This document shows, in pieces, positions 3,841 to 64,000 of a DNA stretch of 64,000 nucleotides. The position numbers and the translations under genes are program-made. The notes under the pieces are model-generated. The model saw only the letters and a list, made by a program, of their open reading frames with translations, ran no database searches and was not told where the DNA came from. This stretch comes from Marsupella aquatica (Eukaryota > Plantae > Marchantiophyta). The DNA lies in assembly GCA_973895155.1 (NCBI GenBank), contig OZ316892.1, forward strand, positions 16,420,357-16,484,356. The letters run 5' to 3'. Each line of letters begins with the position of its first letter. Position 1 is the stretch's first letter.

Positions 3841-3858
3841 TACATTAGCCCTTTCGCA

Positions 3859-6172: not shown

Positions 6173-6369
6173 GATAGACCTAACATAGTTGTAGTGGAAG
6201 ATACTGACATTCCCTCCACTAGTTAGATATCTAGTACATCAATGGCGTAGCTAACCCCTACCATCTTATTTTGTGGCTATTTTATTGGCATTACATATTT
6301 ATTTCATGTGTTCTCACTCTCTACCATTGCATAAACTATATTGCTACAAGTATCCATAATCAAACCATG

Positions 6370-32460: not shown

Positions 32461-32810
32461 GAGGTGTTTACAAAAGACAGCAAACAGGAAACAAGATTTA
32501 ATAACAGAAACTGGTAACAAGAAAAAAACTGGTAACAAGAAAATGGGTGGAATTTTTTTGTGAATTTTTTTTGAAATTATTATTTTTCGGTCGACCAGTT
32601 TTTTTTGCTAGCGCACGGCGCTGCTAATAGTAGCGCCCAAAGCTAGCCAAAAATGTTGCATTGTTAATTTTTTTGGGAAATAACATGTTTTAGGAGATAT
32701 TTTTAAATTGTCATTTTTTCTGGTAACAGTGATTTTTTCCTGGTAACAGCATATTAAAAATAGGAAAAAAAATTCCTGTTTACCTGTTTCCTGTCTCCGT
32801 CGCTATACCC
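32461..32810. mobile_element. 350-bp non-autonomous miniature element of the MULE family
   Basis: 8-bp TSD TGTCTTTC at 32453-32460 and 32811-32818, inside CACTA coding sequence. G-initiated ends with inverted ACAGGAAAC-type repeats. Central palindromes at 32609 and 32631. Confidence 0.85.
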
Positions 32811-35665
32811 TGTCTTTCCAGTGTGTAAAAGTTGTTGGCTCAAGTACATCACACTCGTCACCAAAGGGCATTTTAATAGAGGAAAATAGTAGTGGGTCAC
32901 GCCTCATCTGATGTCCCATTGGAAGAAACTTTGTATGCCCAAGATAAACAATCTTGTGAAGATGTGTTGAATACTTGGCTATATCACCAAGGCTTGGGCC
33001 ACAAGTGTCCGAGCAAGCCTTGTAGCCTTGGGTTTGCAACCCACTCACAAAGCCAAATCCTGGTCATATAAACACACATTATGTTAGGATTAGCACATGG
33101 AAATGAGGGGATACCATGCATTAGAATATGATGCATTTAAACAACAAAGTAGTCTAGTTTCATAGTTCTTACCTGGGTAGTCATGCATGGTCCACATACT
33201 AATCCCTTCCGTTTAAAAACCCATGATAAGAAAAACCATCTAAGAAAAACCTACTCTAATGTGTAATATGTCCTAGTCTTTGAAAGGTTTATAGTTAGGA
33301 ATGAAAATGTAACCTCATTAAAACCCCCTCTCCTTTCTTGTAGGGGGAAAGAGTGTTACCATTTTCTCCAAGCTATATGTTAATGTAAAGTTATTGTAGT
33401 CTGCTAAAAAAAATTAAGTGGGTTGTCTTATAGACTTTGTACCCGTATCGTTTGGTCAGTAGCCTTATACAGTAAGGTTCTACTATAATTTGCGTGTAAG
33501 TCCTCTACGTGCTACAAGTCCAAAGTTAGTCGTAGTTTGCGTTTAGGGCAGTGGAACTATGCTTAAGTCGATTCCTCTGATCCAAAGTCGATGTTTGATG
33601 GGTGCGCAATGTCTGGTGTGCGTTGCTGTCGTGTTCTTGATTCTCTGGTCAATTCTCTTTTGCGCGATTTGAATGTCGGGAAGCGGATGTGGCGAACTAT
33701 AGCTAGTGAGATTTGTTCCGGTAGATGCGCATTTTCTTTCAATCGTGTGTTGCTAGCTTCCCAAGAAGGTCCTCCTCTTCTTGTGCATGGTGGGTACTAT
33801 GTACTGTCTTGGGATGAGTGACTGAGTGCTCCCCCTAATGTTGTCAATTCTTCGAATTAGTTTGGCTTTGGTATCTGTCTTCTCAAATGAGTCAGCAGCA
33901 TCGATCCGTGGAGTAGTTGGTGGTGAGCTGTATCGCATTTCTCCCTCTGTTGTCAAAGGTAAAATTTTGTAAAGAATGCTATTCTTGAGGTTTGAATGGC
34001 TGTTTGTTTGAGGGTTTGGATCTCTCCCTGATTGTCATAAGCATGTCTGCTGTGATCTTTGTTCAAGATCTGTTCGAGTTGATCTGGTCCAAGCTTCGCG
34101 GTGTAGCCTGCAGATTGGGTCTCCCCCTGAGCAAAAAACAAGCGCTTCCACCGTAAGTATAATTGTGTTTAATTTTGTAGTTCAGTTAAGGTCCGTAGAC
34201 CTACTGAGATTGCATGCTGTTTATGCAATGCAGTAGGTAGGGATTTTGTAAACATCACGTTCGAACCGTCGGGAAATTCCCATTCGAACCGTCGGTGAAC
34301 CGTTCAATGGAGTACTCCTCTCCAAATCAAATTCCACCGCATTAGCTAGTAGCAAATTAGAAGCCTCTTTGAACAATCGAGGGGATCCAGCCAGGTCTAC
34401 TGAACGGAAAGCTAGTTCAAATACCGTAGGACCTGTTCCTCTATGTAACCCATCCCAATAGGCAGTATAAGCAGCAATTTGAGAGATTGCACGATTGTGG
34501 TCAATTTTACAACCCTCGAATAATCCGACAGTTTTCTTCCCTTGCCAAGCTTTCATGATACCATGAACTGCCTCAAATCCAGTGCAATTAGGAATCATCC
34601 CTCCTTGTGCACTTTTGCTCTGCAGGACGGCCAGAGTTCGTCAAATCTCAAAATCTACATTTGGAAGTTATGTTGATATTCTTCAACAATATGTATGAAT
34701 TAAAGGTAGCGCCAGGCGCTGACCAAAACGCTGAGATAATCAAGAAAAAGAAGGTGTTAATAATAGCGCAAGGCACTAGTATGGAAGTGTCTATTCAGTA
34801 AGTGAAAAAATGGTGATACTTACAAGTCGAATAAAATTTCCCCACTGCCGCCATCTTACAACCCACCAAGAGATCCATCCCTACAGCATCCAAAGCTTCC
34901 CGGGAATGCAATTGCCAGATCTCCACCACAAATCAATTTCTCGGGAAATCTTGTAAGCTTTGACAAACGTTGATGCATTTCTAAGCTTATCCTAGAGCAG
35001 GCGATGCTCAGAACGTTTGTCTTTGAGCACTCCTTTGATAGAATGGCGGTGCAAAGATTGGTAAAAATGAAAAGCATCCGATCTCTCTTTCTCCGGATTT
35101 GGATGGCCCCCAAAGAAAATGTTTCTGACCGCACGCCACCCCGACTGAGCATTATCAGCCATGAATCCATGAATTTGAACATCATCTACCCCATTTTCTA
35201 AAGCGACCTCGATCATTAATCTCCATGCTTTCTCGAGAGATTCAGTGTCCTCCGCTTTCAGCTCACACGTAAATATTGTAGATAAAGCTCGATAGTTATG
35301 GTCATAAACATGGGCGCTAAAAGTACTCCAATCTTTCGACATTCGTTTCATGACATCAAAACTCACCCACGCACCTTCGAGGGGTCCACTTTTTCATCTG
35401 TCGCAACAAATCTACTCCGGATCCATGCCCTTTGATCGTCATTTTGAAAATATGAGCTCGGTCCTCCTTAGAGCCTTGCCCTGGAAGTAGATACCTTTGA
35501 ACAAAAGGGAACCTGACATTCTTCTGCATCCGAACCAGATATTTGAGGTCTCCTCGCCCGACCTGATCTTTCCAGACACTCTTAAACAAGGCAAAGAACT
35601 TATGTGGAGTTGAAACAAGCATAAGTGATTGCCAAATCTCACTCTCTTCCATCTTCGAGATGTCA

Positions 35666-38442
35666 TGTGATGCCTAGCCAGGAATCACTAGGCCAGTTAA
35701 GTGGGGAAAACGGAGGTGTACCCTAGAAACACATTAGTATAGTAACAAAAACAAGGAAAATATAAACAATTAAGGGTGACTATGGAACCCAGGCCGAGGC
35801 CGGAAGTAAGGACGCTGGGGGAGAGAACACGATTAGGGTTAGGGTGCGCTAAGCGTCGGCGGCTAGGGGTAACCAACGGGAGGAAAGACCAGAGGAGGAG
35901 AGGGGTAAGGACCGCTGTCATGAGGTTTCCATCCTAAAGGAGGAATCCTCATGTTTTGTGAAGGAAGTTGAAACCAATTTTTGCTTCTAACTTGGGCAAG
36001 TTGACTTGACTTGAGCTAACTTGACCAATGTGAAGGAGGAAGTAGAGTTATGAGGGTCAAGGTAGGGATGAGGTCGAGCCTACCCACCCTTGTTACTATT
36101 GTGGGGTATGTTTTTCATTTGTGACCAGCGATTAAGTTATCATTTGGCGGATTGGCGGAATGGAGGTTGCTTGCTCAACAAGCAAGGTATCTAGGGTTTT
36201 GGCGACATGGTGACCAGGTTCATTGAATACATGGAGGAGGTGACCAGGTTCAAGGCATGTAAGAGGGTTTGGTCCAAGTGCATCAGTTTTGTGAGATATG
36301 GGCCAGATTCCTAGTTTTGTGAAATAAGAACTAGATTCATTGAACCTACATCAACGGTGGATCTTGGTTGAGTCAATGGATGAATGGATAGGATTGAGGA
36401 TGAGGACGTGCCTTAGGGTTTGGAGGAGGTCGAGGTTTTTTCGAAAGTGCGAAGCCTCATTTGGTTACAAAGTTACAAAGGATGGTATTTTGGCTCATTT
36501 TTGACCCTTAGATCTTTTTGATGGATGATCAAGGGCTGAAAATTGCCGAGGACTTAAACCATAAGTGGAGGGCTTGTGCCTTGCCCCAGGCCTTCCCACG
36601 AGAGTACTAAAGAGGAGAGTTCGAAGGGTGGGCTCTCTCTCACACCGTGATGCTGCTAAAGTGCTGTCGCTTTTGGCAGTTTTTGAGTCTTTGAGTAAGT
36701 TTTGAATAGGTAGGAGCGAACCTCTTGAGGGGAGCTCAAGCATGAGGCATGAGTGAAGGGGGAGCCCTCCTCCTTGGCCATGGCCTTAGGATTTTGAGGG
36801 TAGGAGATGTAGAGGCAATTTTGTGAAGAGATAGATGGAGTAGAAGCTTTGAATGTGAAGAGATTGAGTTTTGTGACGGTTTTTCTAAGGATTTGGAGAG
36901 AGGTTTCGAATGTAGGAGAGGCTGACTCGAAGCCTTAGGAAGGAGGTAGGATGTGAGTAGGAAGTATAAGGAGCTTGCATGAGAGATTGCCCACAAGATG
37001 GCATACTCGAATGTAGGTTTGTTGCTTCAAGTTTTGAGGAGAATGGACTTGTAGGAGATTTTCGAAAGCTTAGAGGAGATGTGACCTAATCTTGTTGAAG
37101 CTTGGGAGTCTTGCATTAGAGATGGCTCACTAAGAAGGCCTACTCTCTTGTAAACTCCTTGACTTGAAGCTTCGAAAGTAGATTTGGTTGAAAGAAGGAA
37201 GTATGAGAGAAGGAGACTAGGGTTTTGAAGCTTGGATAGGCTATGGAGGGATTTTGAATGCTTGGTTGATGATTAGACTTGGTGATGATTCATTTTTGCT
37301 AGGAGGGTCTTGCTTGTGACCCATGTTTTTACTTGGAGGCCATGATGCTACATGTGCCTTCTTGCTATGCATTTAGAGGAGAGGTATCCTCGTTTTTGAG
37401 ATGTGTGTTGATGCCTTGCTTTGGCTATGAGTGATGGAATGGTTAGAATGAATGTCTTCATGCCATTTTCGAATGTTGTTGTGAGCTTGAAGGTGTTTTT
37501 GAAAGTAGATGGGTTGAATGAAGGTACTTTCGAAAGTAGTTATTATGCATGAGGGAAGTTGCAAGAGTAAAGAGTGAAGGCATTTTCCATTGATGGAATG
37601 GGTTGTTTGTGGATTATACTTGGTGGTTCTACTAGAGGAAGGGACTAAGGTCAATTCCATGTTTGTTAAGGAGTTTGTTGACCAACCCTAGGTCACTTTT
37701 CGAAAGTAGTTTCCCATGTTTTGAAAGTTGGATGTTTGAATGGTGCATAGAGCTGCCTTGCATACCTTTGGATGTCCCACTTGTCTTAGCCACAACCAAG
37801 AGTGACCCTTAACTTGACCACATTGATGTATGCTTGAACTTGTGTACCTTAGAGGGTTGCAAGGGATTGTGTGCAATCAAGTGTTGGAAAAGGAATGGTG
37901 ACCAATTGAATGTTGGGCTTAGACTTGTGAGGATTACATTGGGAAGCTTGAACTAGTTATTTTGATTGTGATTGGATATGAGTATGTAAATGGCTTGAGT
38001 TTCGAAAGCATGCTTGCTTGCTTGTGATGATGTGGATGAAAGGTTAGGGTAGATACTTTGTCTTGTTTGCAACCGTTTCCTATCTCAAGCAGCCATACAC
38101 CCTGCGTGTCCCTTGAGGCCCTTTCCCACCTCTTTGCTTATCCTCAGGACAGCGGCTTAACCAAGCCAATTGGGGATCATTCTGGCGGCGGAATCCAAAT
38201 ATACCTAAAGAACAGGAGGGGAAGACAAGGGAAGGCCTAGATTAGGCCGGCTACGTATCTCATGACCCGATGAAGGATCTGTCCAGTATATGTGTGTAAA
38301 ATATTAATAGTAGTAGTAGAAGGAGGTTAGTAGCGTCCCATGCCGCTAAGCCACGAAAATGGCCTCGCCGAGGACAAAACCTGTGGGAATCGGCTTGCAC
38401 AAGGGGTTTTCTTGGGTTTGGGGAGCCATGGGACGCACCACA
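35666..38442 (+). mobile_element. Family A element with its interior replaced by another solo LTR
   Basis: TGTGATGC...GCACCACA termini. Perfect TSD TGTCA at 35661-35665 and 38443-38447. Only ~250 bp (5') and ~290 bp (3') of family A sequence remain. Confidence 0.92.
35916..38151. mobile_element. 2.2-kb solo LTR-like sequence with non-matching flanks
   Basis: TGTCATGAGG...CCTCAGGACA (9/10 inverted match). Flanks ACCGC and GCGGC. No coding motifs. Confidence 0.75.
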
Positions 38443-40222
38443 TGTCATCGATAGATTCATCTAGTGCATCCTTAAGAGATCCAGTGATCGCATTTTTCAA
38501 AACACTAGGCGAGGAAGAAGGATTCTTCAAATGCTCTTTCCGAATCTCTTTGACCGCTATCATCTCCAAACTTCTAGACCAGACCTTTCGACACGGATGG
38601 TTATGGACACCCATATGCACTGCAAGGCGTGACATATGCTGCGTTGTCGCTGAATCCAGGAGAACTTGTGGGTACATGTAAAACATTTTTGCAAAACAGG
38701 AGTCCAAACAGAACGGAAGTTGAAGACAATACCGACAAACAATCCCTCCTGAATCAATCAACTTTCCTGGACAATGTTGGCCTCCCAACTTGGGGGTCCC
38801 TTCCCAGGAGCTACAATTCCTACCATTTGTTCTAGTATAAAACTCGCATGATTTGTTTCGGCATTCAAGTGATCTGCTACAGCTGACTTTACCAAACTCC
38901 CACATCTTCTTCGGCAAAACATTCGCAGAAGTAGGACGAATTTGAGTCCATAGATAGCAATCCTTCAAACGGTCCATGTTAAGGAGACGCTTCCCCTTTG
39001 AACCCATACAATCGACAGGCGGAAGCTCAAATATGACATTGCCGTTGTAAGTTTTGGGAAGAAATTCTACTTGCTCGTGCTTGAAAGTCTGTGATCTTAC
39101 AAATCGAGATAGCTCACTTTGACCAATCGATTTCAGAAGGGCGTCTAACGCGCTCCTTCTATAAACTATAGGAAGAGAAGGAGATTTAAGAAGCTTGTCA
39201 CCTCCACTATCTTCCGTTGAGGTACTACATTGATGCATTGGAAATGGATTCTTTAACAAATAACATTCTTCACGCTTGATGTTCCTAAAGTCAATTGGCA
39301 ATTGAGAGACAGGGAAAGAGTCATCGCCATCAAACGTGAGGTCAATGACCTCTGTTGGTGCATCCCCCGTCTCTAGTTTCACTACTTTTCCTTGGAGGAA
39401 AAGCGTGTACTCGACACCGCAGTGCAGTTCCCACCATTTTTGACCAAAAATGTAAAAATAATTGACTACCTCCTCGACAGTTGTCCCTAAGCTTTCAATG
39501 TATTTCCTCCTAACATCAAACCTTCCCCAAAGATAATCTTCACTAACACGCTGATTACCATCTCCGTTAGTCATAGGAACGCTAATCACGTCTCCCATTT
39601 GAGGATATTTTACCCTAATAACCCGTGACATTCTGACAAAATGGCAAAATGGCAAGGGTGTTTCCAGCCTCGGTTTATTATTTCCCTCAAGTAAATCATC
39701 AAGAATGAAGAAACCACACACAAATGCACAAAATATTTAGATTTTTACCGTTCACTCAACGGATAAATTTGAGATAAATGGCGATAGATGACCGTTGAAA
39801 ACAAAATGTTTCCGTTAAGTTAATGGATATTTTCACAACGGAGAATAATAGCGCCAAGGGCTAGCAAAAACCCTACCAGATCGTCGTTCAAAAGCGTGAA
39901 TTTTATATATTTTATATTTTTTTCTTCCACCTTTTAATGGCAATTTAACAGTAAAACCCGCGAAACCCCACGGAAGGGAGGCCAAAACAGCCAGTACAAG
40001 AGATGCCAAGGGCCCAAAAAGCAAGAGTACCAGCAGCCTCACTCAACCGTGCCATAGTACATCAGGCAAAATTCTAATTCTGAGAATAAAAGAGCATTAT
40101 CCTATAGCCAGAGCGGAGATACCGGCAGGCATGCCCTAAGGTAACCCTAACTAGGGGCAGGCAGTAGTCTACTAGCAATAATGCAGGCGTGCTAAGAGGC
40201 AAGTAAGAAATGAGTGCTAATG

Positions 40223-43200: not shown

Positions 43201-44144
43201 TTTGCTAATGCAGAGCCTTGTAGTTCCGCGAAGCGGTGTCTGAGTCGAGCTGTGGCTGAGTGGAAATGAAGAGATGGGTTGTCAATCCGCACTCCGTCAT
43301 CCCAGGCGATCTTGAGTTCCCCCACGAAGTCCGCGTCCTTCAGTAGACCTGAATTTGCTTTGAAGTAAGATGCTTTTGGCTTGTTCGTTGCAGGATTTGT
43401 AGTAGCCAGTTTGAATTGTATTAGAATGGGGTCGTGGTCCGACAGTGCCAAGCCTCCGTCATGGATCAGTTGCTCGACCAAACCCGCCCACCAACTTTTG
43501 CCGCTGAAGTAGAATCTATCTAGACGAGATTGTACCAGCTTGCCGTTAATTGTCCTACGCCATGTGAATTGAGACCCCTGAAAATCAGATGCCAGGGAGA
43601 GCGCGTCTTCAAGATCAAAACGAGTTTTGAAGAATCTCCAGAATTCAGCCTCCCATCCATGTATTAATGGGGACGATCCAGTCGAATCTCTCCTGGCTTC
43701 GGTCATGTTGAAATCGCCGCATACGACCCAGTTCTCTCGTGGCAAGAAGGACTTGAGTTCGTTCCATAGTACAGCGCGCTCTCTAGGGAGGTTAGGCGCA
43801 TAGATGTTGACCACCCCGAACCTTCCGACCGTGCTTTCTAGTCTAGCCCAGACCGCACGTCCCTTATCGACCACTCCATGATCAATGATTTGGAGCGAAG
43901 GATGAATAAGTAAAGTTGTCCCTCCCTTGCCCTCGTCAGGTGCCGAGGCTAAGTGCGTAAAGGAAGGTAGAATAGTTTTCATTGCCAAATCTAGTCTGAA
44001 TTTATCGGCCTTGACTTCTTGTAAGCCAAGAATCGAGATGGGTCAATTTAGAGAGGATATCCAATTTTTAACTGTATGCTTCTTGTTTGTCTCACACAGA
44101 CCGCACACGTTCCAGGATGCAATGGTTAGAAGCAACTCGCACAT
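40223..44144 (-). pseudogene. L1 ORF2 (endonuclease, RT, CCHC)
   Basis: IASWNVCGL, SRLDRFY, LSDHDPI, WRPLTMLN, LDFEKAFDRV, QGCPLSP, LFADD, CQIC..ESIPHLFFKC. Several stops and a frameshift. Confidence 0.95.
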
Positions 44145-44387
44145 TTTGCCCGAGTACTTCTAAACCCCTTCGTCCGCCGCCAGTAGACCTTACATCAGGG
44201 GGTAACCCCGGGCGCCAAGAGATGATCGTGGTGCAGATGCTTCCGCCAAATAGACCGGTCTACTGCCCTCCTCGCCATCGTTCTCGGTGTAGAAAAGGAC
44301 TAAAGCCATCCCAGTTGTTTCAGGTGGCAAAGGGCTTTCGAGAGGTGATGTTCCTCCAGTCTGAGCTGCTCCAGGGAATTGTAGCGC

Positions 44388-47765: not shown

Positions 47766-50700
47766 ATGGACAACACTTCCCTAGGTAATTCTCAAACATC
47801 AGAGATATCTTTTGCTGGTTCTGTTTACACACGATGCGTTACTCGCTCGACTGCATCGCATTCACTTTGGAACTCTGCGCAGACTTTCCCAACGCAGAGA
47901 CAAGTGATTTCATCATGGAGGACGGGTGTGAAGGGTCACTAGCGATGGGAGATGTGATTGCCAAACATGCAATGTCATTCGTCATTGATTTCAGAGGAGA
48001 GCCCAAGGACCCTCCGCGTATACCGCTTTGTCGCCTGGTCAATATGGAAGTTGTTCGGACTCTCCAGAAGGAAAGCGCTTCAATCGAGAAGCTTAAAGAA
48101 TCATTTCATAGTTCCGGTTACAACTCCTCCATTGGGATGCGATTCTACGTGCAACCCGCTAATTCTGAAGGCATCATCCAATTTTGTACCCCCAAAATCC
48201 ATGAGAGTTGGGATGCTGTCTGGACTGTCCAGAATGAGAAATTTGAAGCGGACTGTGAAGCAGATCCAGATTTCCTTGTCTTAAAAGATAAGATGTTTTG
48301 TGTGTTCGACGGGAATCATCGTCTGTATTCCTGGTCTCAGGTAACAAAAGAGAACCCCAAAAATGTCAAGTACCACCCTCGTGTGCTATGCACTGTGTTC
48401 AAGGGAGATTGAGGTTCTCTTATTGAGATTGAAGCCGCCATGCACATTGTCAATCAGTAAGTTTGGTCATTTTCTTTGATTTGGACAAATTTCCAATTGT
48501 GAGATTTTGGTTAGCGTCTGGCGCTAATGAATTATGGTTGTATACAGATTGGGGCAAGCCGTTGTAGAACCGTCGTGGATCCTCGATGCTGACATAATTA
48601 GTCATATTCTGTCCCATGACCTTGATTATTACAAGACAATAATTGATGCCGGAAACTTCAAACGCTTTGAGGCAATTTGCGCAAAGACAAGGAAAGGCTC
48701 TTGGTATACGAAGAAGATGCCTTTGGAGGCCCTTGTATACATCTTGTGTGAGAACAAGATCAAGTCACACTCTGTGCAATTCAAACTGGACATGGCGACT
48801 GCAAACACTCAAGGGAGGCAGTGGTCAAAGGAGGAGGTCACCAAGCGTCATGCGGCAATGATGAAGGAGGCCACAAAAGAATGGAGCGTGAAGACCTCAA
48901 AGATCACTCCACTCCTTAGCCCCGAATTCAAAGATTTTTTGTCAACATGTTCGGAAATGTACACGCTGACAGAGAAAAACAAGCGAGAACGGAAAGCAGA
49001 CGCTATGGTTTGCACGATGGATCGTGCTTGTCTCTTTACTGCCGTCTCAGCTTTGGACCCAAAGTTGCATTCCACTCTTCTTGTGGCGCATTGCACGCCC
49101 AAACTTTGCAAGCAATTTTTCCATCCGCCGAGTGTGAACGACGAACCTGTTAAACAATGGTGTCACACTTGGCACATGTGGAGTTGGATTGAAGGAATTT
49201 CAATGGGGATGTTGTAGACTGCTCTCAGACAAGTTCAATCTGTCATGCCTCCGGAATGACTTGTCACAGGAGGTGTAGAAACTTTTGATGCTTTAGTGCA
49301 GACGATTTGCAATGATTTCAAAAGTTACGGAGATACAGTCAAGGCAAAGTTTTTTAACACAATGTGGGCGTCAAAGTATGGGGAGAAAGAAGATTTTTCT
49401 TCCCAAAACCAAAAGCGGGCAAAGAGAAACCTTTATCGGTTCTTCTTGTCCATGGAGAGCAATTCTCCTGAATATTTCTGGGCTTATCCTCCTATGTTCC
49501 AAAGGTGGTCGGTCATGGATGGGGATGATTTCAGTGAGGTTTACTCGATGTATCCTGCAGAAGGAGCCAATCCTCCACGTGACATTTCCGTTTGGGAGCG
49601 AACAAATTGTCCCTGGTACCTCGATACTGATAAGTGGGATACACCTTTTGATGAATTTGAGAAAGATGCCTTTTTGAAATTGTCCAAATCTTTAGTTCCT
49701 CGGAAATGGTTGTCTGAGATGAAGGAAGGATTGGTGGGAGACGTTGAAGCTTTTGCAGTGGAGCTTCAAAAAATATGTGAGACTGAAGTCTTACATGTTG
49801 ACAGGAGCCGAAAACCTCGCGCAAAAGTAAAAGTTGATACAGGATTGAATAGCCCGTCCATGAGATCCGGAAGAAAACGTAAGTTATATGACTTTTTGCA
49901 GTTCTTCTTGATATTTTCCTCTGAAATTCACTTAGTTGTTTGCATTGATTTTGGTTAGCACCAAGAGCTACTTTTAACTATTAAATGTATACTCATAAAC
50001 GAGAATTTAGAAAGTAAATGTTTGTCTAGCGCCGGGCGCTATTATAGTTTTCCCAGTGTTCTTACCTTTTCAATTCTCTGCAGGGGGAAGGAAATCAGAG
50101 GGAGAAGAAACTCAAGATGCAAAGACGACCATTACCCCTGATCAATCTGAAGCAAGTACTGAGGCTGTCGATGCTACCCAAGAGCAGACTCCTCCTACAA
50201 ATACCAACGTTGATCGCCTGGTTGATGCCACAAGCACCAGAAAAAAGAAGAAGAAAAATCTTGATCTCGCTTCTTCTTCTAGAGAATCGTATGCATGTAC
50301 AGGCATCCAACAAGAAGTTGGTCAATTCAAGTCTAAAGTTTTTCGTCATATGTTTGTTGAGTCCAGTCTAATGGACTTTTTTGAATCTGTTTTTACAAAA
50401 GAGACTAAACCCAAGTGGGTGACGAATGTCGAGAAGTGGGGAAAAGACTTAGTGACACTTGGGCTCCGGGAGAAAGGGGTAGTTAGGGGAGGCAAGTTGA
50501 GATCTTTTGGGGTGGATGCGGGTTTTGTCTACCTACCGACAAGTCTACGACCTTCTTTGCTTCACCAAAAATTGCCAAAGTGGAATGTACCGGATCACCG
50601 AATGGTTGGCTCTTTCTTTAGGGCAATGGACCCATTTCTTGCCGACGATGGGTTGTTAGCAGTTTTGCACACTGGGGAGTATGACCAGATCTCCCAAGTA

Positions 50701-51409
50701 ATTTCGGCCAGCCAAGACTCCCAGAAGTTCCAGTGCCTCAGAACACTCAACGTTGTTATGGGTGCCCCAATGTACATGGCCAAAAGCGATTGTCAGGTAA
50801 TTGTCCCTTTGAATCAAGAGAATCATTTGCTAGCGCTTGGCGCAATTAATAGATCTCATTTCATATTTGATGTTCACATGTAAATGTCCTCCTGTACCCA
50901 GGGTCTTTTGGGTAGCGTCAGGCGCTATTAATATATATGACCAAATCTCATATTGAATACTGTTTATTTTCCACGTTTTCACCTTAAGACTTGATATCTT
51001 TAGTTGAGTTACATGAAGGTTAGGGTCGGTCCCCAAAAATTCAAAGTTCAAGCCTTTGTCTTCAACCGAGGACCCTTCAATCACAAACCTCATTGGACTG
51101 CAGACTTTGAAGAAGGATCCTATTCTAGAAGCTGCATTTGCAGGGAATGCACGACTATCGGTCGGCTTCATGCAGTCTGTCCTAGAGTTAATTTCTCATC
51201 CGTGAGATATTATTATGGACTGGACGGTTGGGTCAGGAAGTACATTTGTGGCTCGGGATTTTTTTGGCCGTTTCATCCTTGGGATTGAGAATCGCAAGGA
51301 ATTTGTTTCTATTGCTGAGAGGACATACACTGACTTGCTCCTCCCAAAAGAATCGAGTGAGGCTGGTTCGAGCAAAGACATGGAGAAAAAAGTGAAAGAT
51401 AAAGTTTGA
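47766..51409 (+). pseudogene. ParB/Srx-like + beta-class N4C/N6A DNA-methyltransferase-like fusion gene (4 exons; stops and frameshifts)
   Basis: Exon 1 has MFCVFDGNHRLYSW. GT-AG introns 48457-48547 (phase 2) and 49879-50083 (phase 1) restore the frame; a third, 50797-51003, is followed by a frameshift. C-terminus: GVDAGFVYLPT...FFRAMDPFLADDG...SVGFMQSVLELISHP*DIIMDWTVGSGSTFVARDFFGRFILGIE. Confidence 0.75.
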
Positions 51410-52423
51410 TTTGTTCTGAATTTTGATTTCAAAGAAGAAGAAGATGATGATGAAGAGGCCGGTATTGATGTCCAGAAAGAAGGAGAGAAAAAGGATGGGG
51501 GGAATTCAGAAGGAGAAACAAAAGATTCAGATTCTTTTGAGTAATTCCCGTAAGCTCCTTTACATTACTTAACTTTCCATTTTCTTTTTATCTTGTATAC
51601 TTGAATTACTGGATTCTCTCGAAGTGTACTTAGTGTTTCAACTGACTCGCAGGTCAGAGTGGAATCTTTGCGAGAGGTTCAATCTGCGAAGGAAATTTTT
51701 GAGCAAAGTCCTAAACCCCTGAGAAACCATTTGTATTGCCTTCATACGCAGAGTATGCCGCTCGCAAAGAAGAGAGTAGAAGAACCCTGACCTGGGAGAA
51801 TGAGGGCTTACGATTGAGACGTGGTTTGGATAGAAAGTTCATCCGTCATCCATTTGTCGATGATATGGCACGAAATGAATTTATCGATGATGAAGTAGAG
51901 AGTATGGATAGATCAGAGAGTAGTGAGTCGGAATCTGGAGAATATATTAGATTGGATTAGGTTAGTTTAAATTAGATTAGTTATATATTCATGATTTTAA
52001 AACAAATTACCTCCTCCAAAATAGTAGCGTCGGGCGCTACTTATTGTACGCTTCAATTTTATATAAATACAAAGTGGGAAAGGTATTAGCTTTCGCATAT
52101 GTTTCTCTGATGTCAAGTGTAGTGTAATGTTTTCCAAAATGCAAGTACATGTACTGATGTACGATGAAAATCCTTTATGACCTTCACTACCATACGTACC
52201 TGTTTCCCTAGTTGAATTCCTTCGCAACGGTAGGCATTTTGACATCGCCTATGTTCAAGGATTTCCAGGAGCTCTTTCGCGTTTAGCGCCGCATAGACAT
52301 TGATCCAAAGACCATGGAGAAAGGAAAGCAAGTCTTGTGTGAGAGAACTTTCGGCCCCACAAAGTTGGAAGGCGAAGCTTCAATTGATTCTCTGGCCTCA
52401 GAGGTCCCCATCGACGAGACTCC

Positions 52424-52786
52424 TTGCCTATCACCTCAACTGAGAGGAATCGACTATGGCTGGCCTCGGATGAGGGGATAAGCATTCGAGCAAAACCAGA
52501 TTCATGCCCTGATTTGTCTCCTCCCCGATCTTTCAGAGAACGGTTCTCTATTCACGATCCGGATCCTTCTGATGTCTATAGGGTTGGACGGACGGTGTTT
52601 TTCAGGGGCATTCAACAATGGACCGGGCGAGTCCGATTTTCTGACTCCAACATTCCAAATTGCAGGCTGAGGAGTTGCCTTCCAGGACCGCGTTTTTTTG
52701 CTGAGCGGGAGGATGGATTTTGCCATCCAAGGGTCAAGGCATCGATCCATGCCCTCTTGGAAAATACAAAGGGGCACTATAAATAA
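52424..52786 (+). CDS. Small conserved ORF/exon of unknown function near the MULE end
   Basis: SDEGIS...SPPRSFRERFSIH is conserved in ORF 3288-3572 (-). Confidence 0.45.
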   Translation: MPITSTERNRLWLASDEGISIRAKPDSCPDLSPPRSFRERFSIHDPDPSDVYRVGRTVFFRGIQQWTGRVRFSDSNIPNCRLRSCLPGPRFFAEREDGFCHPRVKASIHALLENTKGHYK

Positions 52787-52850
52787 AGTGAAGAGGATCA
52801 CACTCTCCTCATTCGCATTTGTTTGATCTATCGTGTTGGACTCGCAACAC

Positions 52851-55800: not shown

Positions 55801-55931
55801 GGGAGCTCTACAACCAAGGAAGGTGGAAGGTGGATCGAGACATCCAATGGAAGGTGAAATCAGTGAATGCAAATCACAATTCTTTGTGGGGAGCTTGTCC
55901 TGATGTGAAGCTTAAGGTAGGAAATGTCAGA
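52851..55931 (+). mobile_element. Ty3/Gypsy 5' fragment: LTR 52851-53760, PBS 53765-53782, gag-protease
   Basis: TG...CA LTR followed by TGGCGACCATACTGGGGA (tRNA-Arg-type PBS, as in Tat/Ogre-like elements). Truncated after the protease. Confidence 0.85.
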
Positions 55932-55937
55932 AGTTAG
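53928..55937 (+). pseudogene. Gypsy gag + aspartic protease
   Basis: FNGRNVTRY; CMWCDSKEHRRNDC zinc knuckle; ALIDSGSEVNLM. One in-frame TGA at 54408. Confidence 0.88.
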
Positions 55938-56646
55938 TTAGCCAGTAGGCATTACCCCGGGAGGTAGTATCTTCCGGTTCCTTTCCGCAAATGTAGTATT
56001 TAGGCTTCCCCTTCCCCTGTGGGAGGGGGAGAAGGCTTAGTTATTTCAGCGTTAGGAAAGGCGAGGCACGGGGAGTCCCGGCCTGAGCAGGGTCGAAGTG
56101 CACCAAGGAGTGAGAGCCAGAGTCGAGCTTGCTGGGCAAGTGCGGGGCGGGGCCTCGTAGAGACTGGGCATCGACTGCCGTTGGGCCCGCTGACCCCCTT
56201 AGAAGTCGAGTCAACTATGTAAACTGATTCTTCGCTGAGTAAATGTAGTCTTTTCCCTCTAAATATTTCCGCGAGTAACTAGTGTTGTGTGTATGCTTTG
56301 TCTGGGCAAAGGCGCCATTTCAAGGGACGTACCGGGTGCGGACTAATGGTAGGGATTGCCACCCATTGCATGTCACAAGGTTCTATCGCGACGATGGCTT
56401 GAAAGCCCCAAGCCGGGAGTTAGTCCGAGTCACTAACTGTGGGAATATTCCAGCGATGGAAAACAAATATACCTATGATTAGTACGAGTTGCATAAGTGT
56501 TATACCAGTAAGTATATTGCCTTAGCCTGACTTAGGGCTAATCGAGGCCACTACACACCTCCTTGCTCGAACCCTCACCCCTACTGGTGGTCAGCGTCGC
56601 CCCATGGAACTAAACTGGATTTAAGGCCCAGGTTAGGGGCGCGACA
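55932..56646 (+). mobile_element. 3' part of a family B LTR fused to the truncated Gypsy
   Basis: Homologous to ~1370-2077. Ends GGCGCGACA at 56646. Confidence 0.75.
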
Positions 56647-56920
56647 AGCTTACTACATCCCAGTTCTTTAGCCGTTTTTTAGCTCGCGGTATCTCTTAAG
56701 ATTTTAGAGCTTGAAGGCAGAATAGGTATCATCGTTCGGCTTTGTGTTTTTGCTACCATGTAACACACATTTTAAAGTGGCGCCATGCGCTACTAATATA
56801 CTCGGCATTTTTATACACGCTTTTTATTGATGGATGTCACAAATATTGTGTAAATTTCCTCACTTATTTTACTGTTACCATTTCCTGTTTCCTCTTACTG
56901 TTTCCTGTTTCCTGTCACGG

Positions 56921-59000
56921 AGGTTGGGCCCGTTGTAGGTGGTGAGGGTCGGATTATGAGCTTGCCCTGTGAACAAGCTAAACAGGGAGATTTCATGGAT
57001 GTGGGGTGGACCATTTCCGGTATGCCCAGGGTTTCTCTAATCAGTTTCAGGAACATTGTTGTTCCCGGGTGGCCCAGTCTCCTGTGCCATATCTCGGTAA
57101 GTGTGCCTTGGGGTGTTCCAGTGTAGAAGCTGTGGATTTCAGTAGTGTAACAACCGGGGGGTGATGCTCTCAGGATCTCTTTGATCTTGGTATTTGTTGG
57201 TTCCCCCGAGGTGATGTACAAGACTTCCCGTCCTTGTTGAGTGCCCGTCTTAATATGTAGTTTGTTAGCACGGATATCCCCAAAGCTTAGTAGGTTTCCG
57301 GTTGCCTTTGGGGCGTATATCGCAGACTCCACATGAATTATCGTCCCATGGGGTAGGGTGACCAATGCTGGTCCAAATCCCTCTTCCAATTGATGCTGGC
57401 CCATAATCGTTGTAAGTTTTCTTTGGGATGGTATAATTTGCTTGAAGTATTCCTTATGCTTAAAAATGGAATGCGATGTACCACTATCGACTATGCAGTG
57501 GGAAAAATTTTCTTTGATACTAGAATCAGGTGTGGTCTTTGATATGACCATGTTTATAGTTGGTATAATTTCTGTGGATTCTAGGAAAGTCCCATACGTC
57601 TCAGGTTCATTTTATGCAGTGCTCTTCTTATATAGTTGCACCAGGTGTGCAGGTGTATGGCAGAATTTTTGAATGTGGCCTTTAGTGCCACAAGAAAAAC
57701 AGGTAGAGGGGTTTTCGTATTTATCTCTTTGAGTGCTTTGCTGTTGATTTGTCCTCGCTCGGGGTTGATAGTTGCCTCGCTGCCAATTGTTTCTGAAGTT
57801 ATCGCCGGTGTTTTGGTATCTTCCCCTGGATCTGCCTCTGAAGTTGTTGCTTCTACCTCCGCGTCCTCTGAAAGAGCTACCTTGGCCTCTGTATGTGTTT
57901 CTCCCCATGAAACTATCTTGACCATGGTAAGATGAGCCCTCTCCCCTCTGGGTTGTAACGTAGTGGGATTCTGAATTTGTGACTGGAGGGAGAGTTCCAG
58001 GGGGTCATTTTTGGGAATTTTGTAATAGCAATAGCTGGTGCTTTTAAGCCAGGAGCATATGGGCAATCAACTCGGAATATTGTGTGAATCGCATATTGCG
58101 ATATTGGGTAGAGAGAATGAGATTTGTAGGGTGAAGGGTAGAGAGTGTTTTCTCAATCTGTTCGTCATCATTAACGGGGTGGCCACATATGGCCAATTGG
58201 GATACAATCCAAAATAATTTGCAATTGTAATCCGCGATTGATTTATGGTCCTGGACCCAGAGATTTATCCAATCGTGTCTGGCCGCAGGCAGGTGTATGG
58301 TGCGCATGTGGTCGAAGCATGATTGAAGTGCATCCCAAAGGACTCTCGGATTATATTTGTTCATGTACTGTCGCTTCAGAGAGTCACTCAAATGGTGTCG
58401 AATTAGTATCAATGCCTGCGCTTTTTGCTGAAGTGTTTGGCCATTGTCAGTTATTACTGTATCCTATAGATTCTTTGAAGTTAGACGAGCTTCAGCATTG
58501 AGTGTCCAGGACAAATAGTTGGCACCATCGATGCTGAGTGGTTGAAATAAAAGTTTCTCCATGGAATTCGTTGACATTTTTCTGGATAATTTCTTATTGA
58601 TAAACTCAATTGGTGAAGTTGAAGGAATTGAGAATAAACTTTCAAATCGTGTTTGGCAAATTTGGAGTTTCTTATCTCATTGCCCGATTTTGTATCCAAT
58701 TCGTTTTGATCATTGACATCCAGTCTCACAGGATGATTTCGGCCACTGCTGCACCTTTGTCTGCCTTTAATCCTTCCCTTAATGGTGGAAAAAAATGTAA
58801 TCCCTAAAAAAAATTGATTCAAATCCAGCATCGTGCTGATAACGTGTTGTAAGGTGTGGAACAACTGATCACTTCATTTATCATCTCCCCATTACATATA
58901 GCTCCTATGGAGGCTAGCTAGGTAGTTAGGCGGTTGGAATTAGCCTAACTGTAGTAGGGTTTAACCCTAGGTAGGGTAGGTTTAGGTATGGGTTATAACA
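56921..59000 (-). mobile_element. Copia, Bianca-like, 5' fragment (156-bp LTR 58845-59000, gag, protease, start of integrase)
   Basis: TG..CA LTR followed on the minus strand by CGTTATCAGCACG (Bianca-type PBS). ILIRHHL...ARHDW...EKTLST...QYR; CFSCGTKGHIQKFC; CIVDSGTSHSI; WHRRLGHPG. Confidence 0.88.
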
Positions 59001-62000
59001 CAATCATAATTCTCCACAATTTCTCAAAGGACTCCATGTCTTCAGCTTTTAGTTCGCATGTGAAGATTGTACAAAGAGCTCGGAAGTTGTGATCGTAAAC
59101 ATGTGCACTGAAAGTAAACTAGTCGGTTGTCACTCACTTCATCACATCAAAACTCACCCAAGCTCCTTCCAATTTTTTGCCGGGTTGCATCTGTCGGAGA
59201 AGATCTACACCAGATCCATGACCCTTGACTGTCATTTTGAATATATGGGGCCTATCTGCTACACAACCCTGACCCGGCAGGAGGTACCTTTGGAGGAAAG
59301 AAATGTTATTTGCCCTTTGCATCCAAGCTAGGAAATCTAACTCACCACGACCAGCCTGGTCCATTCAAACGCTTTGACAAAGCGATGCAAATTTCTGGGG
59401 GGTAGACAGTACCATGAGAGACTTCCAAATCTCCGTTTCTTCAATATCTACTATGTCGTCGAGGTTTTTGCAAAGAGCTTTCACGAGCAAACCGGTTGCA
59501 GAATTTAAAATACCAGCCGGCTTTGCTAGAGGATTGGCTTCATGATTTTTTCTTATCAAATCCTCAGCTATCTTCTCAGCGCTCCTCGAGAAAACTTTTC
59601 TACTCGGATGGTTATGCTCACCTATATGAACTGTGAGCCGAGACATGTGACTACAGGTCTCTGTATCAAGAAGGACTTGAGGGTACATATAAAACAAGCG
59701 AGCAGGGCAAGACTTCACACAAAAAGGAATCTGCTCACAATAGTGACAGACTACACCACCCTCTTCAATCAACAAACCCACCATGTGTTGGCCACTGAGT
59801 TTAGGAGCACCATGCCAGGCTTTTGCATTGCATCTCTTCTTTCGCTGAAAGTACTCACAGGACTTGTTCCCGCACTCGATGAACCTGTCACGCGATTGAC
59901 ATAGGTCTTAACACCAAAAATGTCACTATGGGTGCCAAAACCATCTCCTTGTACTTGAGGATCACGAAGGGATGTTGTGAAGGCCGGTAAACATCAGTTT
60001 ATGCCCTTAACACCAAACTATCATAGCAAGACTCTGTCACACATCACCCAAGCTCAATCCCTAGGAATCAAGGTTGGGAATCAGATCCTGTGCACTCATG
60101 GTAGTTCATGAACCTAGTTGTGTTGCCTACTAGAAAGAGCCACAATATAGCTTGCAAACCTGGCCAACTGTTGCTGTGAAGCGTGGCTGATTACTCCCTG
60201 AGTAATAGCACAACCAAGCTCTCCCCAGCACACAGCTTCCAAGCCCAGCCTTCCTTGCACAGAGCTTCTCCCTGCTACTCAGTCTACGTGAGATCACACA
60301 ACTGAAGTCCCCCTGCCTCTACCGGGGGCGCTGCTCTATATACTCTCATACTGAGCCCAAATGGGTGGATACTACGCTGCTGGAGCCCCATCCCAGCCCT
60401 AATAGAGCCGCCACTATCTCTAACTACTGAACCCTAACTCGCAACTTTATTTCTATCTCGAATTGACTATGTACTTCGGATTTGGCCCTCCTCCATGGTT
60501 TTTGCGAGCTTGCGCCTCCTCTCCTGATTTCTCTATTCAACCATTTGCTACGTGGATAGCATCGTTGGAAGCGACTTGAGCTCCTCTTTCCAACGAGGTT
60601 AATTATAGCCAATTTGGGCAAATACAGAGAAAGTTATGCCCTTGCAACCAAGAGGGGGTACTCATTGCTATGCTAACCCGAGTTACATAGCTAATCCGAG
60701 TTCGGCTAGCCTAGCTATCCTATCTAACCCGAGTAGAGCTAACCCGTGGTCTCGGGTTAGGCCGCTACCCGCTATCTGCTAACCTAGGCTAAGCTGAGCC
60801 TGAACCCGAACTTACCTATGCTAACCCAAGCCCGAGTTTAGGCAAACCCGAGTTCAGTCTAACCCGGGATCAATCTAATCCGAACCTGGGTTAAGCCTAA
60901 GCTGAAGCTGTGCTGACCTGAGCTAAGTTGAAGTCGTGCTTACATGAGCTAAGCTGAAACCATGCTTACATGAGCTAAGCTGAAGCCGTGCTCACATAAG
61001 TAAGCCGTGGCCGAGCTTAGGTTAACCCGAAACCGAAGCCGAATCCGCTAATTCCGACCACAAGTTAACCCGTCACACTAATCAGGCTGTATCTTCCTTA
61101 ATACACCTCCGTTTCCGAAGTGTTTTATATTGATTTTACTCGCATTGACCAGATCTTTCCAATGCTCTTTACAGATCCGGATTTGGTGACATATTGAATG
61201 AGATATGGTCACCGACCACCCACGATATTTCCCTAACATTCTAAGACTAGACTATGAACCACTAACCTAACTAACAAAATGAAGCTACACACCCAAGACA
61301 TTTAGATTTCATCCTGAGCACAATCACCATACCCCACAACTTCATATTCAGCTATGGAGACTCGCTTCCTGGAATTACCACGCCTACCTCCGTACCGGCG
61401 TCTTGAAGAGCCTCCATGCTCCATCTTGCTTGTCAAGAAGATGGTATGCTTGAAGAGCTGAATCCTCTCTTCCCCAGTTTCTCCTTTGTGGCCTTGACAG
61501 TGACTACCTCAATTGTGTCTGCCTTGGTTGTGCAGTCTTCAAACTGAAATACATTTATCCCTACTCTTAACGCCATGATTGCCCTTATTCTTGCTAGCTT
61601 GCTAATTGTTATGCAATATCAATAGCTACTCCTTGCATACAACAGCCTAGTTAATCAGATTATAGAATAAGGACCATGTCATCGGCGTCACAGATGCCGG
61701 TACACGTAACCTTACCAAATTCCCAATGTTTCTTTGGATGCACGTTCGCAGTTGTAGGAAAAATTCGGGTCCAAATGTAACAATCTTTGGCGCGGTCCAT
61801 GTCACGAAGTCTAGATCCCTTGGAGAGCGTTCCCTCAATGGGAGGCAGTTCAAATACAACATTTCCGTTGTACTTGTCTGGCAAACAAGGAACTTGCTCA
61901 TGCCGGAAGTCCCCTATCAAGATAAATCTTGATAGTTCACTATATCCCGTGGCCTTGAGTAAGGCGTCCATCGCACTCCTCCGGTAGACTTTATGACCAA

Positions 62001-62409
62001 CTGCAGAGGTAGCCACCGGCTCATCCTTAACAAAAGCGGAAACCGGAACTTTGTACTGCGATGGAGGAGTGGGTGCAACATCACCATCTTCACTGTCAGA
62101 TATGTCAACAACAACAGGAATGTTCCCAACTACTGGTTTTGGAGCGACACGTCTGACATTAAGCGTGTAACTAAGCCCGGCATTCATATGCCAAAAGCGT
62201 ACTCCCTCATCTACATCGAATGCCGCAGCCCGTTGAAGTTCTCCACTCGTCGATTCGTGCGGAACAATGGACTCAATATCATTCATCCTCAAATCAAATC
62301 TCCCACAGAGGTAGGTTTCACTAACTTGCTTGTAAGCATCAGAAACTTGCACGGGGATCTTGATGACGTCTCCAGTACAAGCACGTGTAATTACAATTGA
62401 GCGAGACAT
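59001..62409 (-). pseudogene. Second, diverged MULE transposase; interrupted by a solo LTR and 3'-truncated by the Copia
   Basis: Colinear with copy 1: VYRRSAMDALLK, YNGNVVFELPP, DCYIWT...WEFGKV, FYMYPQVLLD...HIGEHNHP, QRYLLPGQG...HIFKMT.KGHGSGVDLLRQM, WVSFDVMK. Confidence 0.85.
59886..61692. mobile_element. 1.8-kb solo LTR with internal short tandem repeats (~60670-61075)
   Basis: TGTCACGC...GCGTCACA termini. Degenerate 5-bp TSD GAACC/GATGC. Removing it restores the transposase frame (CTG.IEC). AACCCGAG and GAGCTAAGCTGAA repeats inside. Confidence 0.75.
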
Positions 62410-62640
62410 TGTGAGAAAATAAAGGAATCAACAAAGTGAATTCCTCCCAAATGGAATGCTTATACTAATGCGTGAAGACGACTGACCGTTATAAAAGTCG
62501 TTTGAATACGACATAGAATTGTTTCCGTTGAAATCATAAATGTAGTGTTTGTCCTTTTTGCCCCGGTAAGTGCGGGTGTCAGGGATATTTATTGTGTCAA
62601 AATGAACACATATAGGCCAAGATAATTCACATGATTTCAG

Positions 62641-63023
62641 CAGCGCCTGGCGCTACCAAAAATTCCAGGATTTACAAGGTTAGAATTCAGTCACACACCA
62701 GACTAGCGCCAGGCGCTAGCATTATAGTGGACCCCAATAAGTCTACTTTTTTGTATCTAAACATGCAATATCGTCCAAATTTAAGCACCATTCATGGATA
62801 TATGTACTAGCGTCGGGCGCTAGTATTGGTACACCATATGTAAGGACCAAATGTGAACGAAATTAAACTTCCTACGTCCGAAAGTACTTCATTTTCAAAA
62901 ACTTTCACATAAACTGGGACCAAAAACATAATCGTGAATAGACCATGGAATGGGTAGCGCCTGGCGCTATCCATTGAACACATTAAACTTTATGACCAAT
63001 CTTTTTACTAGCACCGGGCGCTA
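62641..63023. promoter_or_regulatory. Cluster of five TAGCGCC-N-GGCGCTA palindromes in the divergent intergenic spacer of copy 2
   Basis: Copies start at 62641, 62704, 62808, 62955 and 63009. A regulatory role is inference. Confidence 0.7.
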
Positions 63024-63336
63024 GCAATGCATTACCAAGTTTTAGTAGTCTGGTCAACGGTAATATTTAATGGTAACTACGGTTAGCGTGATCTTCACGA
63101 AAATAGTTTAGCGGATTTCACATTAATATCTGTCACAGTTCTTAGATTGTCGCTTTGTTTTAACGATAAGTAATACCCAATTTCATCGTAACGTCTCTTA
63201 AATAGATTACATGGAGGGAGATAGCACTGATCAATGAGGTATAACACTCCATCAATTGTTAATTTGGTACAGAGATTCAGTACTCGATCGTGAGAATTGT
63301 AGTGTACGACCGTTCGTACAACACTCATCGCGGGAG

Positions 63337-64000
63337 ATGATGGATGCAGTCCCCTCCTCGTTGAGGGGGTATAGTGTTGTTGGGGATTGTGATCGTGGCT
63401 ATTGCGAGTCTTCTGAGTCTTCATTTTCAGGTTCGGTGTATACATGTCGAGTGACGAGGTCAAGCGCATCGCTTGTTCCCATCTCAAGTAATTCGCTTCC
63501 GAAGCCGACGCAAAAAAAGATGGAGAATGTTGACACATTTGCAATCGGAGATGTCTCGTTCTCGGAGACCGACCTTATTTTGAAACATGTCATGTTCTTT
63601 GGGAAGGATTTCCAAGGGTTTAACAAGGAGCCTCCTAGGATTCCGCTGTGTCAGTTGGTGCATATGGAGGTCATCCGCACCTTGCAGAAAGATAGCTCCT
63701 CCATTGACAAGTTGAAAGACTCTTTTCGTAGTATGGGATACAATTCATCGATAGGAATGAGGTTTTATGTTCAGCCGACGGACGCTGAGGGTGTGACGCT
63801 CACTTGCACACAAGAAATTTATGATACTTGGGATCCAATATGGATATCCGAAAACAAAAAGTTCGAGGAAGAATGTGCGGCAGACCCCGATTTTCTCGTT
63901 CTAAAGGATAAGATGTTCTCAATTTTTGACGGGAACCATTGGTTGTACTCCTGGACGCTTGTCACTAAGGAGAATCCAAAAAACCCAAAATACCACCCGC
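63337..64000 (+). CDS. N-terminus of the second ParB/Srx-like gene (runs off the window; absent from the ORF track)
   Basis: Open frame from ATG 63337: PPRIPLCQLVHMEVIRTLQKD...GYNSSIGMRFYVQP...DPDFLVLKDKMFSIFDGNHWLYSW...KYHP, a clear paralog of 47834-48412. Confidence 0.85.
   Translation, partial: MMDAVPSSLRGYSVVGDCDRGYCESSESSFSGSVYTCRVTRSSASLVPISSNSLPKPTQKKMENVDTFAIGDVSFSETDLILKHVMFFGKDFQGFNKEPPRIPLCQLVHMEVIRTLQKDSSSIDKLKDSFRSMGYNSSIGMRFYVQPTDAEGVTLTCTQEIYDTWDPIWISENKKFEEECAADPDFLVLKDKMFSIFDGNHWLYSWTLVTKENPKNPKYHP

Follow-up and report, generated by a model that had tools for sequence, protein, structure and literature searches.

A probable Mutator-like transposon group of non-seed plants pairs its transposase with a gene for a predicted ParB-fold protein and carries family-specific palindromes

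Results

A stretch of 64,000 bp from the liverwort Marsupella aquatica (GenBank assembly GCA_973895155.1, contig OZ316892.1, forward-strand positions 16,420,357 to 16,484,356; hereafter the window, numbered from its first base) is a nest of plant transposons containing two diverged copies, A and B, of a probable Mutator-like element (MULE). Each copy holds a transposase gene and, head-to-head with it, a gene coding for an unrelated protein, referred to here as the partner. The initial annotation, made from the sequence alone, had proposed this arrangement, and we recovered the four start codons at 39631 (− strand, transposase) and 47766 (+ strand, partner) in copy A, and at 62409 (− strand, transposase) and 63337 (+ strand, partner) in copy B. 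The two copies share about 68% DNA identity. The ATG-to-ATG distance is 928 bp in copy B and, once a nested 7.2-kb long interspersed nuclear element (LINE) with its 17-bp target site duplication (TSD) is subtracted in silico, 936 bp in copy A. The genes are laid out as follows.

34215..34654, − strand: copy A transposase exon with FEAVH, whose E is probably the catalytic one, the role of the residue being assigned from the translation; more of the 3′ part may lie towards about 33500
34655..34823, − strand: copy A transposase intron (GT/AG) with two palindromes (34707, 34764)
34824..35665, − strand: copy A transposase catalytic region, with first D (SFDV), second D (FMADNA) and DxxH in the translation; one frameshift and stops
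35666..38442: nested insertion of long terminal repeat (LTR) type in the copy A transposase, 5-bp TSD TGTCA, seen from an empty-site joint
38443..39631, − strand: copy A transposase 5′ part, an open reading frame (ORF) with a Cys/His cluster (C-x5-C-x4-C, CxxC, H-x-H), 53% identical to P0001
39905..47086, − strand: LINE nested between the two copy A genes (Pfam Exo_endo_phos and DUF4283); 17-bp TSD with 2 mismatches
47766..48456, + strand: copy A partner exon 1, predicted ParB/Srx-fold domain (VR, L-x3-F-x3-GY, DGNHR), from 227 homologues and the VIA match of homologue P0156
48548..49878, + strand: partner exon 2, helical middle region, 2 stops; collinear with P0154 (24% identity over 434 amino acids)
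50084..50796, + strand: partner exon 3, motif IV half with FVYLPTS in place of DPPY, by sequence comparison
51004..51540, + strand: partner exon 4, half with the S-adenosylmethionine (SAM)-binding motifs X-I (DWTVGSG), frameshift and stops; PF01555 (N6_N4_Mtase) 30.8 bits against a cut-off of 26.7
51653..51960, + strand: partner exon 5, acidic tail, frameshifted, placed by splice sites; likeness to the P0023 tail judged by eye
59002..62409, − strand: transposase of copy B, interrupted by an insertion (about 59926-61675, TSD ATGTCA) and cut by a copia element at about 59000
62410..63336: copy B divergent intergenic region, 927 bp with five palindromes, bounded by the two starts
63337..64000, + strand: copy B partner exon 1 (predicted ParB fold), truncated at the window end; 69% amino acid identity to copy A

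Synonymous sites are saturated, with a dN of 0.20-0.29, in three of the four aligned segments of copies A and B, the fourth being out of frame and excluded from this reading. The gene pair is under purifying selection and is present in multiple copies. The layout stands as an architecture in both copies; both are dead, broken by stops, frameshifts and nested insertions.

The transposase carries a Cys/His cluster, which we take to be GCM-like, followed by D, D, DxxH and E. The order D, D, C/DxxH, E is the pattern of MULE-type DDE transposases. For the catalytic piece, 23 of the 30 named Atlas hits carry PF10551 (MULE), the top hit scoring 0.92 with 147 shared features; PF10551 is carried by 12-75% of the members of these clusters, making the placement a lead and not an alignment. 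The Pfam MULE profiles PF10551 and PF00872 gave no hit at E≤10 on ten decayed transposase pieces, the PDB sequences gave none with the transposase, and tblastn against plasmids returned nothing useful (best E 0.4). The DDE-type motifs and the Atlas clusters agree with the original assignment, and the element is probably a Mutator-like transposon. The insertions in the two transposase copies lie at different positions of the gene and are both flanked by ATGTCA/TGTCA (35661-35665; about 59920-59925), and the one splitting copy B holds a short tandem array (60700-61020; 16- and 26-bp units).

A HMMER profile built from the two copies of partner exon 1 found 227 proteins in a full search; a word-index search for longer exon-1 homologues had found none. 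Ten homologues were looked up: six are from Riccia sorocarpa and two from Adiantum, and two are listed without an organism. One of the homologues, R1sor_027256 (1207 amino acids), is collinear with partner exons 1-2. The model of homologue P0156 has a pLDDT (predicted local distance difference test score) of about 85-98 over residues 11-170 and aligns by VIA with ParB 7bm8 (Z 8.1, root-mean-square deviation (rmsd) 2.4, 98 aligned residues), and its 12 best structural rows are all ParB, Noc, KorB or PadC. With Box I and Box II defined as in PMC12704722 and PMC10653881, the GxxR box is conserved (G134 in 56/61, N in 60/61, H in 57/61 and R137 in 52/60), as are L61, F65 and G69 of a Box I-like stretch. 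The ParB-like label of the initial annotation thus agrees with the model and with the conserved GxxR, and the partner N-terminus is predicted to adopt a ParB nucleotide-binding fold that retains both elements. The nucleotide preference of ParB-fold proteins is not predictable from sequence (PMC12704722). Pfam and PDB sequence searches did not recognize the ParB part, and viral and prokaryotic sequences, each searched with one short pattern, yielded neither a homologue of the ParB exon nor a prokaryotic donor, which is weak evidence of absence. In the Atlas the ParB-like exon (47912-48409) lies near unnamed and fungal clusters in which 14% of members carry DUF3723 (0.93), a lead only. DUF3723, a family that Starship papers reportedly mention, could be a relative with a ParB fold. 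UniRef lists P0152, P0154, P0155, P0159 and others from Riccia sorocarpa as 'Trimethylguanosine synthase', an automatic label that is probably wrong for such transposon proteins.

The C-terminal half of the partner matches PHROG DNA methyltransferase profiles and is permuted (motif IV, target recognition domain, motifs X-I), which is the arrangement of beta-class N6A/N4C enzymes. Foldseek placed the P0155 model (mean pLDDT 51) closest to M1.HpyAVI, M.BceJIV and CcrM (E 2e-5 to 4e-5). Together with PF01555 above its cut-off, these matches bear out a predicted amino-methyltransferase fold, as first annotated. The further suggestion that the partner writes a methyl mark is not supported, the catalytic motif being degenerate across the family: (D/N/S)PP(Y/F/W) occurs in 0 of the 21 homologues checked, nor does the window have it. 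Motif IV reads YLPT both in the window and in the sequence nearest to it, which are two independent sequences, DLPSG, DMPTG or similar in Riccia, and DVPFG or DLPFG in two others; 20/21 homologues retain its first Asp and two an aromatic fourth residue. Because the DPPY-type motif is missing throughout, the C-terminus is likely a pseudo-methyltransferase, most clearly so in the window family.

Both genes are joined outside the window as well. Contigs from public runs (X1-X3, one of which may be the source of the window itself) lack the LINE, with joints at 39880->47098 in X1 and 39904->47119 in X2 and X3, and two contigs of X1 and one of X3 carry an empty-site joint over the transposase insertion (35659->38442). 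The partner stop at 49257 is missing from the other covering contigs of X1-X3. Variant contigs over both genes are many and far deeper than the unique flank of the LINE; this cover indicates multiple copies and gives no copy number. A scan of metagenomes returned 155 relatives, the best 80 of which were kept and collapsed to 63 distinct loci. Twelve loci have at least 3 kb of upstream sequence, and in four of these a transposase homologue lies upstream on the opposite strand, head-to-head with the ParB-like gene. Plain tblastn detected the transposase in three (E 5e-15, 3e-8 and 8e-7); for the fourth, detection required iterating a profile on these loci. The linkage claimed for the two genes therefore extends to other contigs and to distant plants. 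There is also a weak short-range transposase match in L060 and a downstream, same-strand match in L051. The methyltransferase half lies downstream in 13/63 loci by iterated profile, many contigs being too short to show it. A decayed coding segment is common to L065 (1487-2666, just past the transposase 3′ end), L019 (6683-7880) and L016 (8187-9250), and in the latter two lies directly upstream of the ParB-like gene. A reading of L016 and L019 as derivatives that have lost the transposase was considered and is not established.

The two copies in the window share the palindrome TAGCGCCNGGCGCTA, which occurs 3, 12 and 19 times at up to 0, 1 and 2 mismatches, respectively, against 0, 0 and 0.03 expected from 30 Markov sequences. 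All ten copy A sites fall within the 25% of the copy that is non-coding (P about 1e-6). The sites contain CCNGG and lie in unrelated flanks (column agreement 0.43 vs 0.95 in the arms). The positions are these.

Copy A, ten sites: 47206 and 47311, upstream of the partner; 48512, 50027, 50831 and 50913, partner introns 1-3; 52025, downstream; 39849; 34707 and 34764, transposase intron
Copy B, five sites: 62641, 62704, 62808, 62955 and 63009, intergenic region

The initial annotation had set the palindrome within 33450-64000. It is found there, and also outside, in a 350-bp element and in a fragment starting at 2274, which together with the likely right end of copy A provide the terminal sequences identified in the window.

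2274..3800, − strand: reversed right-end fragment of a third diverged copy, recognized by similarity, with terminal repeat, palindromes at 2913 and 3197 in a 300-bp duplication, and a third-ORF remnant
32461..32810: non-autonomous 350-bp element inside a CACTA transposase fragment, with related inverted ends, an 8-bp TSD (TGTCTTTC) and two degenerate palindromes
56778..56931, − strand: likely right end of copy A, past nested retroelements, with one palindrome, a terminal repeat starting GGG and ACAGGAA subrepeats; 79% identical over 56 bp to the end at 2274

Copy A likely has its right end at 56931, because the fragment at 2274 shares the third-ORF remnant with the copy A 3′ side. The TSD of MULEs is 8-11 bp long. 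No TSD partner was found for the ends at 56931 or 2274, and no long terminal inverted repeat (TIR) was found in 31500-56500 or in ten long loci. The 350-bp element appears, from its ends, to be linked to the autonomous copies.

The window motif has no occurrence in any of the 63 other loci. Related families have their own, different palindromes, which are common within clades, where clades were taken from a quick tree of 61/63 loci and nine other rows. GAGGTGCC-N6-GGCACCTC occurs 17 times in L008 (an upstream array and an intron), and GGGCTTC-N4-GAAGCCC ten times in intron 1 of L001, the nearest relative; in copy A it is the window motif that stands in intron 1. Further own palindromes were found in L011, L028, L034, L037, L039, L051, L065, L068 and L070. 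These palindromes span 12-26 bp with unrelated cores, stand in places matching those of the window family, with 12 motifs each concentrated in the locus or clade to which it belongs. At arm length 5, 15/63 loci exceed their shuffles vs 0/7 window controls. At arm length 6, at least three copies of one palindrome were found in 11 of the 23 loci with at least 1.2 kb upstream, four of the 11 being marginal, vs 0/22 far-flank and 0/18 window pieces. The dispersed palindromic sites attributed to the element are thus element-specific and differ between families (11/23 vs 0/40 controls). In most sets the arms show higher conservation than the flanks, with the exception of L028 (flanks 0.93 vs arms 0.94). 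Some loci in which no transposase is detectable, L008 and L037 among them, also have arrays. An array in L048 proved to be a simple repeat and was rejected as a false positive.

Discussion

We propose, at slightly less than even odds (a probability of about 0.45), that these elements form a Mutator-like group of non-seed plants whose partner, with a predicted ParB fold and a likely inactive methyltransferase fold, binds the palindromes of its own family to counter silencing. The partner would load as a dimer, a dimeric binder being suggested by the palindromic form of the sites, at palindromes in the introns and flanks of its own family. A nucleotide-gated clamp could then spread over the element, as ParB, KorB or VirB do, while the methyltransferase fold would be a module that binds DNA or SAM instead of writing a mark. 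Protein and site would change together in each family, confining the effect to that family in the manner of VANC in VANDALs. The motifs bound by VANC are specific to its family and lie in intergenic DNA and introns (PMC5735166), and VirB is an anti-silencer of the ParB family that spreads from a palindrome (PMC10653881). We favour the partner as a self-recognizing anti-silencer because the sites are distributed like those of VANC, because they are palindromes and because ParB-family proteins load and spread. The fuller proposition, by analogy, that ParB/parS-type nucleotide-gated sliding clamps act in plant nuclei, each family's clamp loading at its own palindromes and spreading to strip or block silencing, is less likely than not. 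If true, VirB of Shigella would have a counterpart in eukaryotes, and self-recognition of the VANC kind would have arisen independently a second time.

Several results weigh against this proposal. Eight of the 12 long loci have no detectable transposase upstream, 12 of the 23 upstream regions have no palindrome array, tandem arrays inflate palindrome counts, and the sharing of motifs within clades is expected from descent and so does not say which protein binds them. The genes had been expected inside common termini; they are linked in other contigs, and shared ends with a TSD around both genes were not found, nor was a left end for copy A or B. As to the fold, a Z of 8.1 is close to the level that the tool grades middling, and Foldseek gave an E of only 0.08 for the whole P0156 model against ParB. 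A helix-turn-helix (HTH) or other DNA-reading domain was not identified in the partner, whose middle region of about 400 residues is helical with a pLDDT of about 45-75; Noc alignments reaching into this region, which was modelled only within the whole protein, have an rmsd of 11-16. Finally, a MULE transposase can by itself bind and demethylate its own family, as the AtMu1 transposase does with its cognate copies (bioRxiv 10.64898/2026.08.24.746577).

AtMu1 offers a precedent for an unlikely alternative, in which the transposase binds the palindromes through its N-terminal Cys/His domain and the ParB-methyltransferase gene has some other, helper role. In favour of this, the palindrome is also retained in the 350-bp non-autonomous element and close to one terminus. 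Yet most sites lie in introns and between genes, kilobases from the ends; the ends have subrepeats of their own that differ from the palindrome; AtMu1 peaks are located at TIRs (bioRxiv 10.64898/2026.08.24.746577); and arrays persist where no transposase is detectable (L008, L037).

It is quite unlikely that the partner, on binding the palindromes, shuts down the divergent promoter in a KorB-like self-repression or assists in a MURB-like way by compacting the element or pairing its ends. KorB is among the top fold matches of the partner, five sites fall within the shared 927-bp promoter region of copy B, and MURB binds MURA (PMC12973397). However, sites extend across the introns of both genes and motifs turn over rapidly between families, as reported for VANC targets, and simple repression would not obviously require dispersed, fast-changing sites.

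That the partner is an active 4mC (N4-methylcytosine) or 6mA (N6-methyladenine) methyltransferase marking its own palindromes is improbable. The beta-class fold and the SAM-binding motif are kept, as are the first Asp of motif IV in 20/21 homologues and an aromatic fourth residue in two; the window site contains CCNGG; and plants and rotifers have recruited such enzymes (PMC8885841). Against this, DPPY, NPPY or SPPY occurs in 0/21 homologues, two independent window-family sequences have YLPT, and the sites, at 12-26 bp, have unrelated cores.

It is similarly improbable that the palindromes serve host transcription factors or arose as a side effect of tandem duplication, beside an unrelated cargo gene: many arrays are tandem repeats, in which any palindrome recurs, L028 flanks agree like its arms and L048 is a simple repeat, yet window flanks are unrelated, the motif is common to copies saturated at synonymous sites, a host site is not expected to vary between families, and the controls are empty.

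Among known systems, VANDAL/VANC likewise combines a Mutator-like element and an accessory gene with short family-specific motifs in intronic, intergenic and terminal non-coding DNA, often in fast-diverging tandem arrays (PMC5735166, PMC10398659). The present partner is set apart from VANC by its predicted ParB and methyltransferase folds, not by sequence comparison with VANC; Pfam gave it no convincing match other than N6_N4_Mtase. The VANC21 motif is a 9-bp non-palindrome (PMC5735166, PMC10398659), whereas the sites here are palindromes of 12-26 bp, and the hosts are liverworts, ferns and metagenome plants as opposed to Arabidopsis. ParB/parS, Noc, KorB and VirB share with the partner an N-terminal nucleotide-binding fold, a Box I-like stretch, GxxR and nearby palindromes of similar length (PMC12704722, PMC10653881). 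Unlike these bacterial systems, the partner is an intron-containing gene of a eukaryotic transposon, with no parA seen and no HTH identified, and with a long helical middle and a C-terminal methyltransferase fold. Phage ParB-N6_N4_Mtase fusions have both domains in identical order (PMC12704722, PMC4738411), but the partner has about 600 extra residues between them and a degenerate catalytic motif.

Other transposons carry DNA- or chromatin-modifying domains, sometimes catalytically dead, such as TET/JBP in fungal DNA transposons, SET in HarbingerS and oomycete MuDR, and the inactive DIRS1 methyltransferase; the available parts of these sources report neither a ParB fold nor family-specific palindromes for them (PMC12730594, PMC4738411). 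MuDR mudrB is also a second gene in a MULE, but MURB binds the transposase, and the same kind of partial source reports no ParB or methyltransferase fold for it (PMC12973397). The chlorophyte-type ParB-HTH Dam clade (Iyer et al.; chlorophytes and chytrids) joins a Group-2 methyltransferase to a ParB-type HTH (PMC4738411), unlike the permuted beta-class (Group-1-like) methyltransferase and ParB nucleotide-binding fold predicted here. The available portion of that review of eukaryotic adenine methylases lists no clade with the architecture of the partner (PMC4738411), and a 2025 survey of the ParB fold, which reports ParB-N6_N4_Mtase fusions in phages, contains neither 'plant' nor 'transpos' in the main text available (PMC12704722). 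A full-text literature search found no description of the gene pair; Repbase, Dfam and most subscription journals lay outside this search, so a prior annotation may exist. The architecture is real, conserved and apparently undescribed.

The group thus shows the genomic pattern of VANC/VANDAL, assembled from unrelated parts of predicted ParB type. Few cases, chiefly VANC, are known in which transposons counter silencing in a sequence-specific way. The same genomic signature appears here across other plants, among them liverworts and ferns, and with entirely different domains of bacterial type. How anti-silencing spreads over kilobases from short motifs is an open question for VANC, to which the predicted ParB fold suggests a concrete, testable answer. 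A dozen natural pairs of protein and palindrome would also lend themselves to work on the evolution of DNA specificity, and perhaps to targeted chromatin tools.

Other features of the window

A possible further gene lies on the copy A side.

52240..52765, + strand: possible third broken ORF, interrupted by a nested retroelement and shared with the reversed fragment at 3459-3600

The two sides match by tblastx with an E of 7e-6 over 19 amino acids, and the multi-copy contig cover extends to about 52765. Neither Pfam nor the metagenome loci gave a match to the ORF (52240-52765 and 3330-3800). It seems to be part of the element.

The ratio of observed to expected CpG is 0.67-1.13 in the element vs 0.33-0.69 in its neighbours, a difference confounded by age, coding constraint and the CpGs of the motif itself. 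Fragments of CACTA elements (Tnp2, PF02992) adjoin element ends twice, at 32300-33340, where the 350-bp element lies within one, and at 3820-6230. A second palindrome type (TTGGAC-N3/4-GTCCAA-like) stands near a CACTA element at 6759, 8303 and 23339 and may be its own subterminal site. GGCCTA-N3-TAGGCC is repeated in the LTRs of a nested retroelement family (12497, 20212, 38234).

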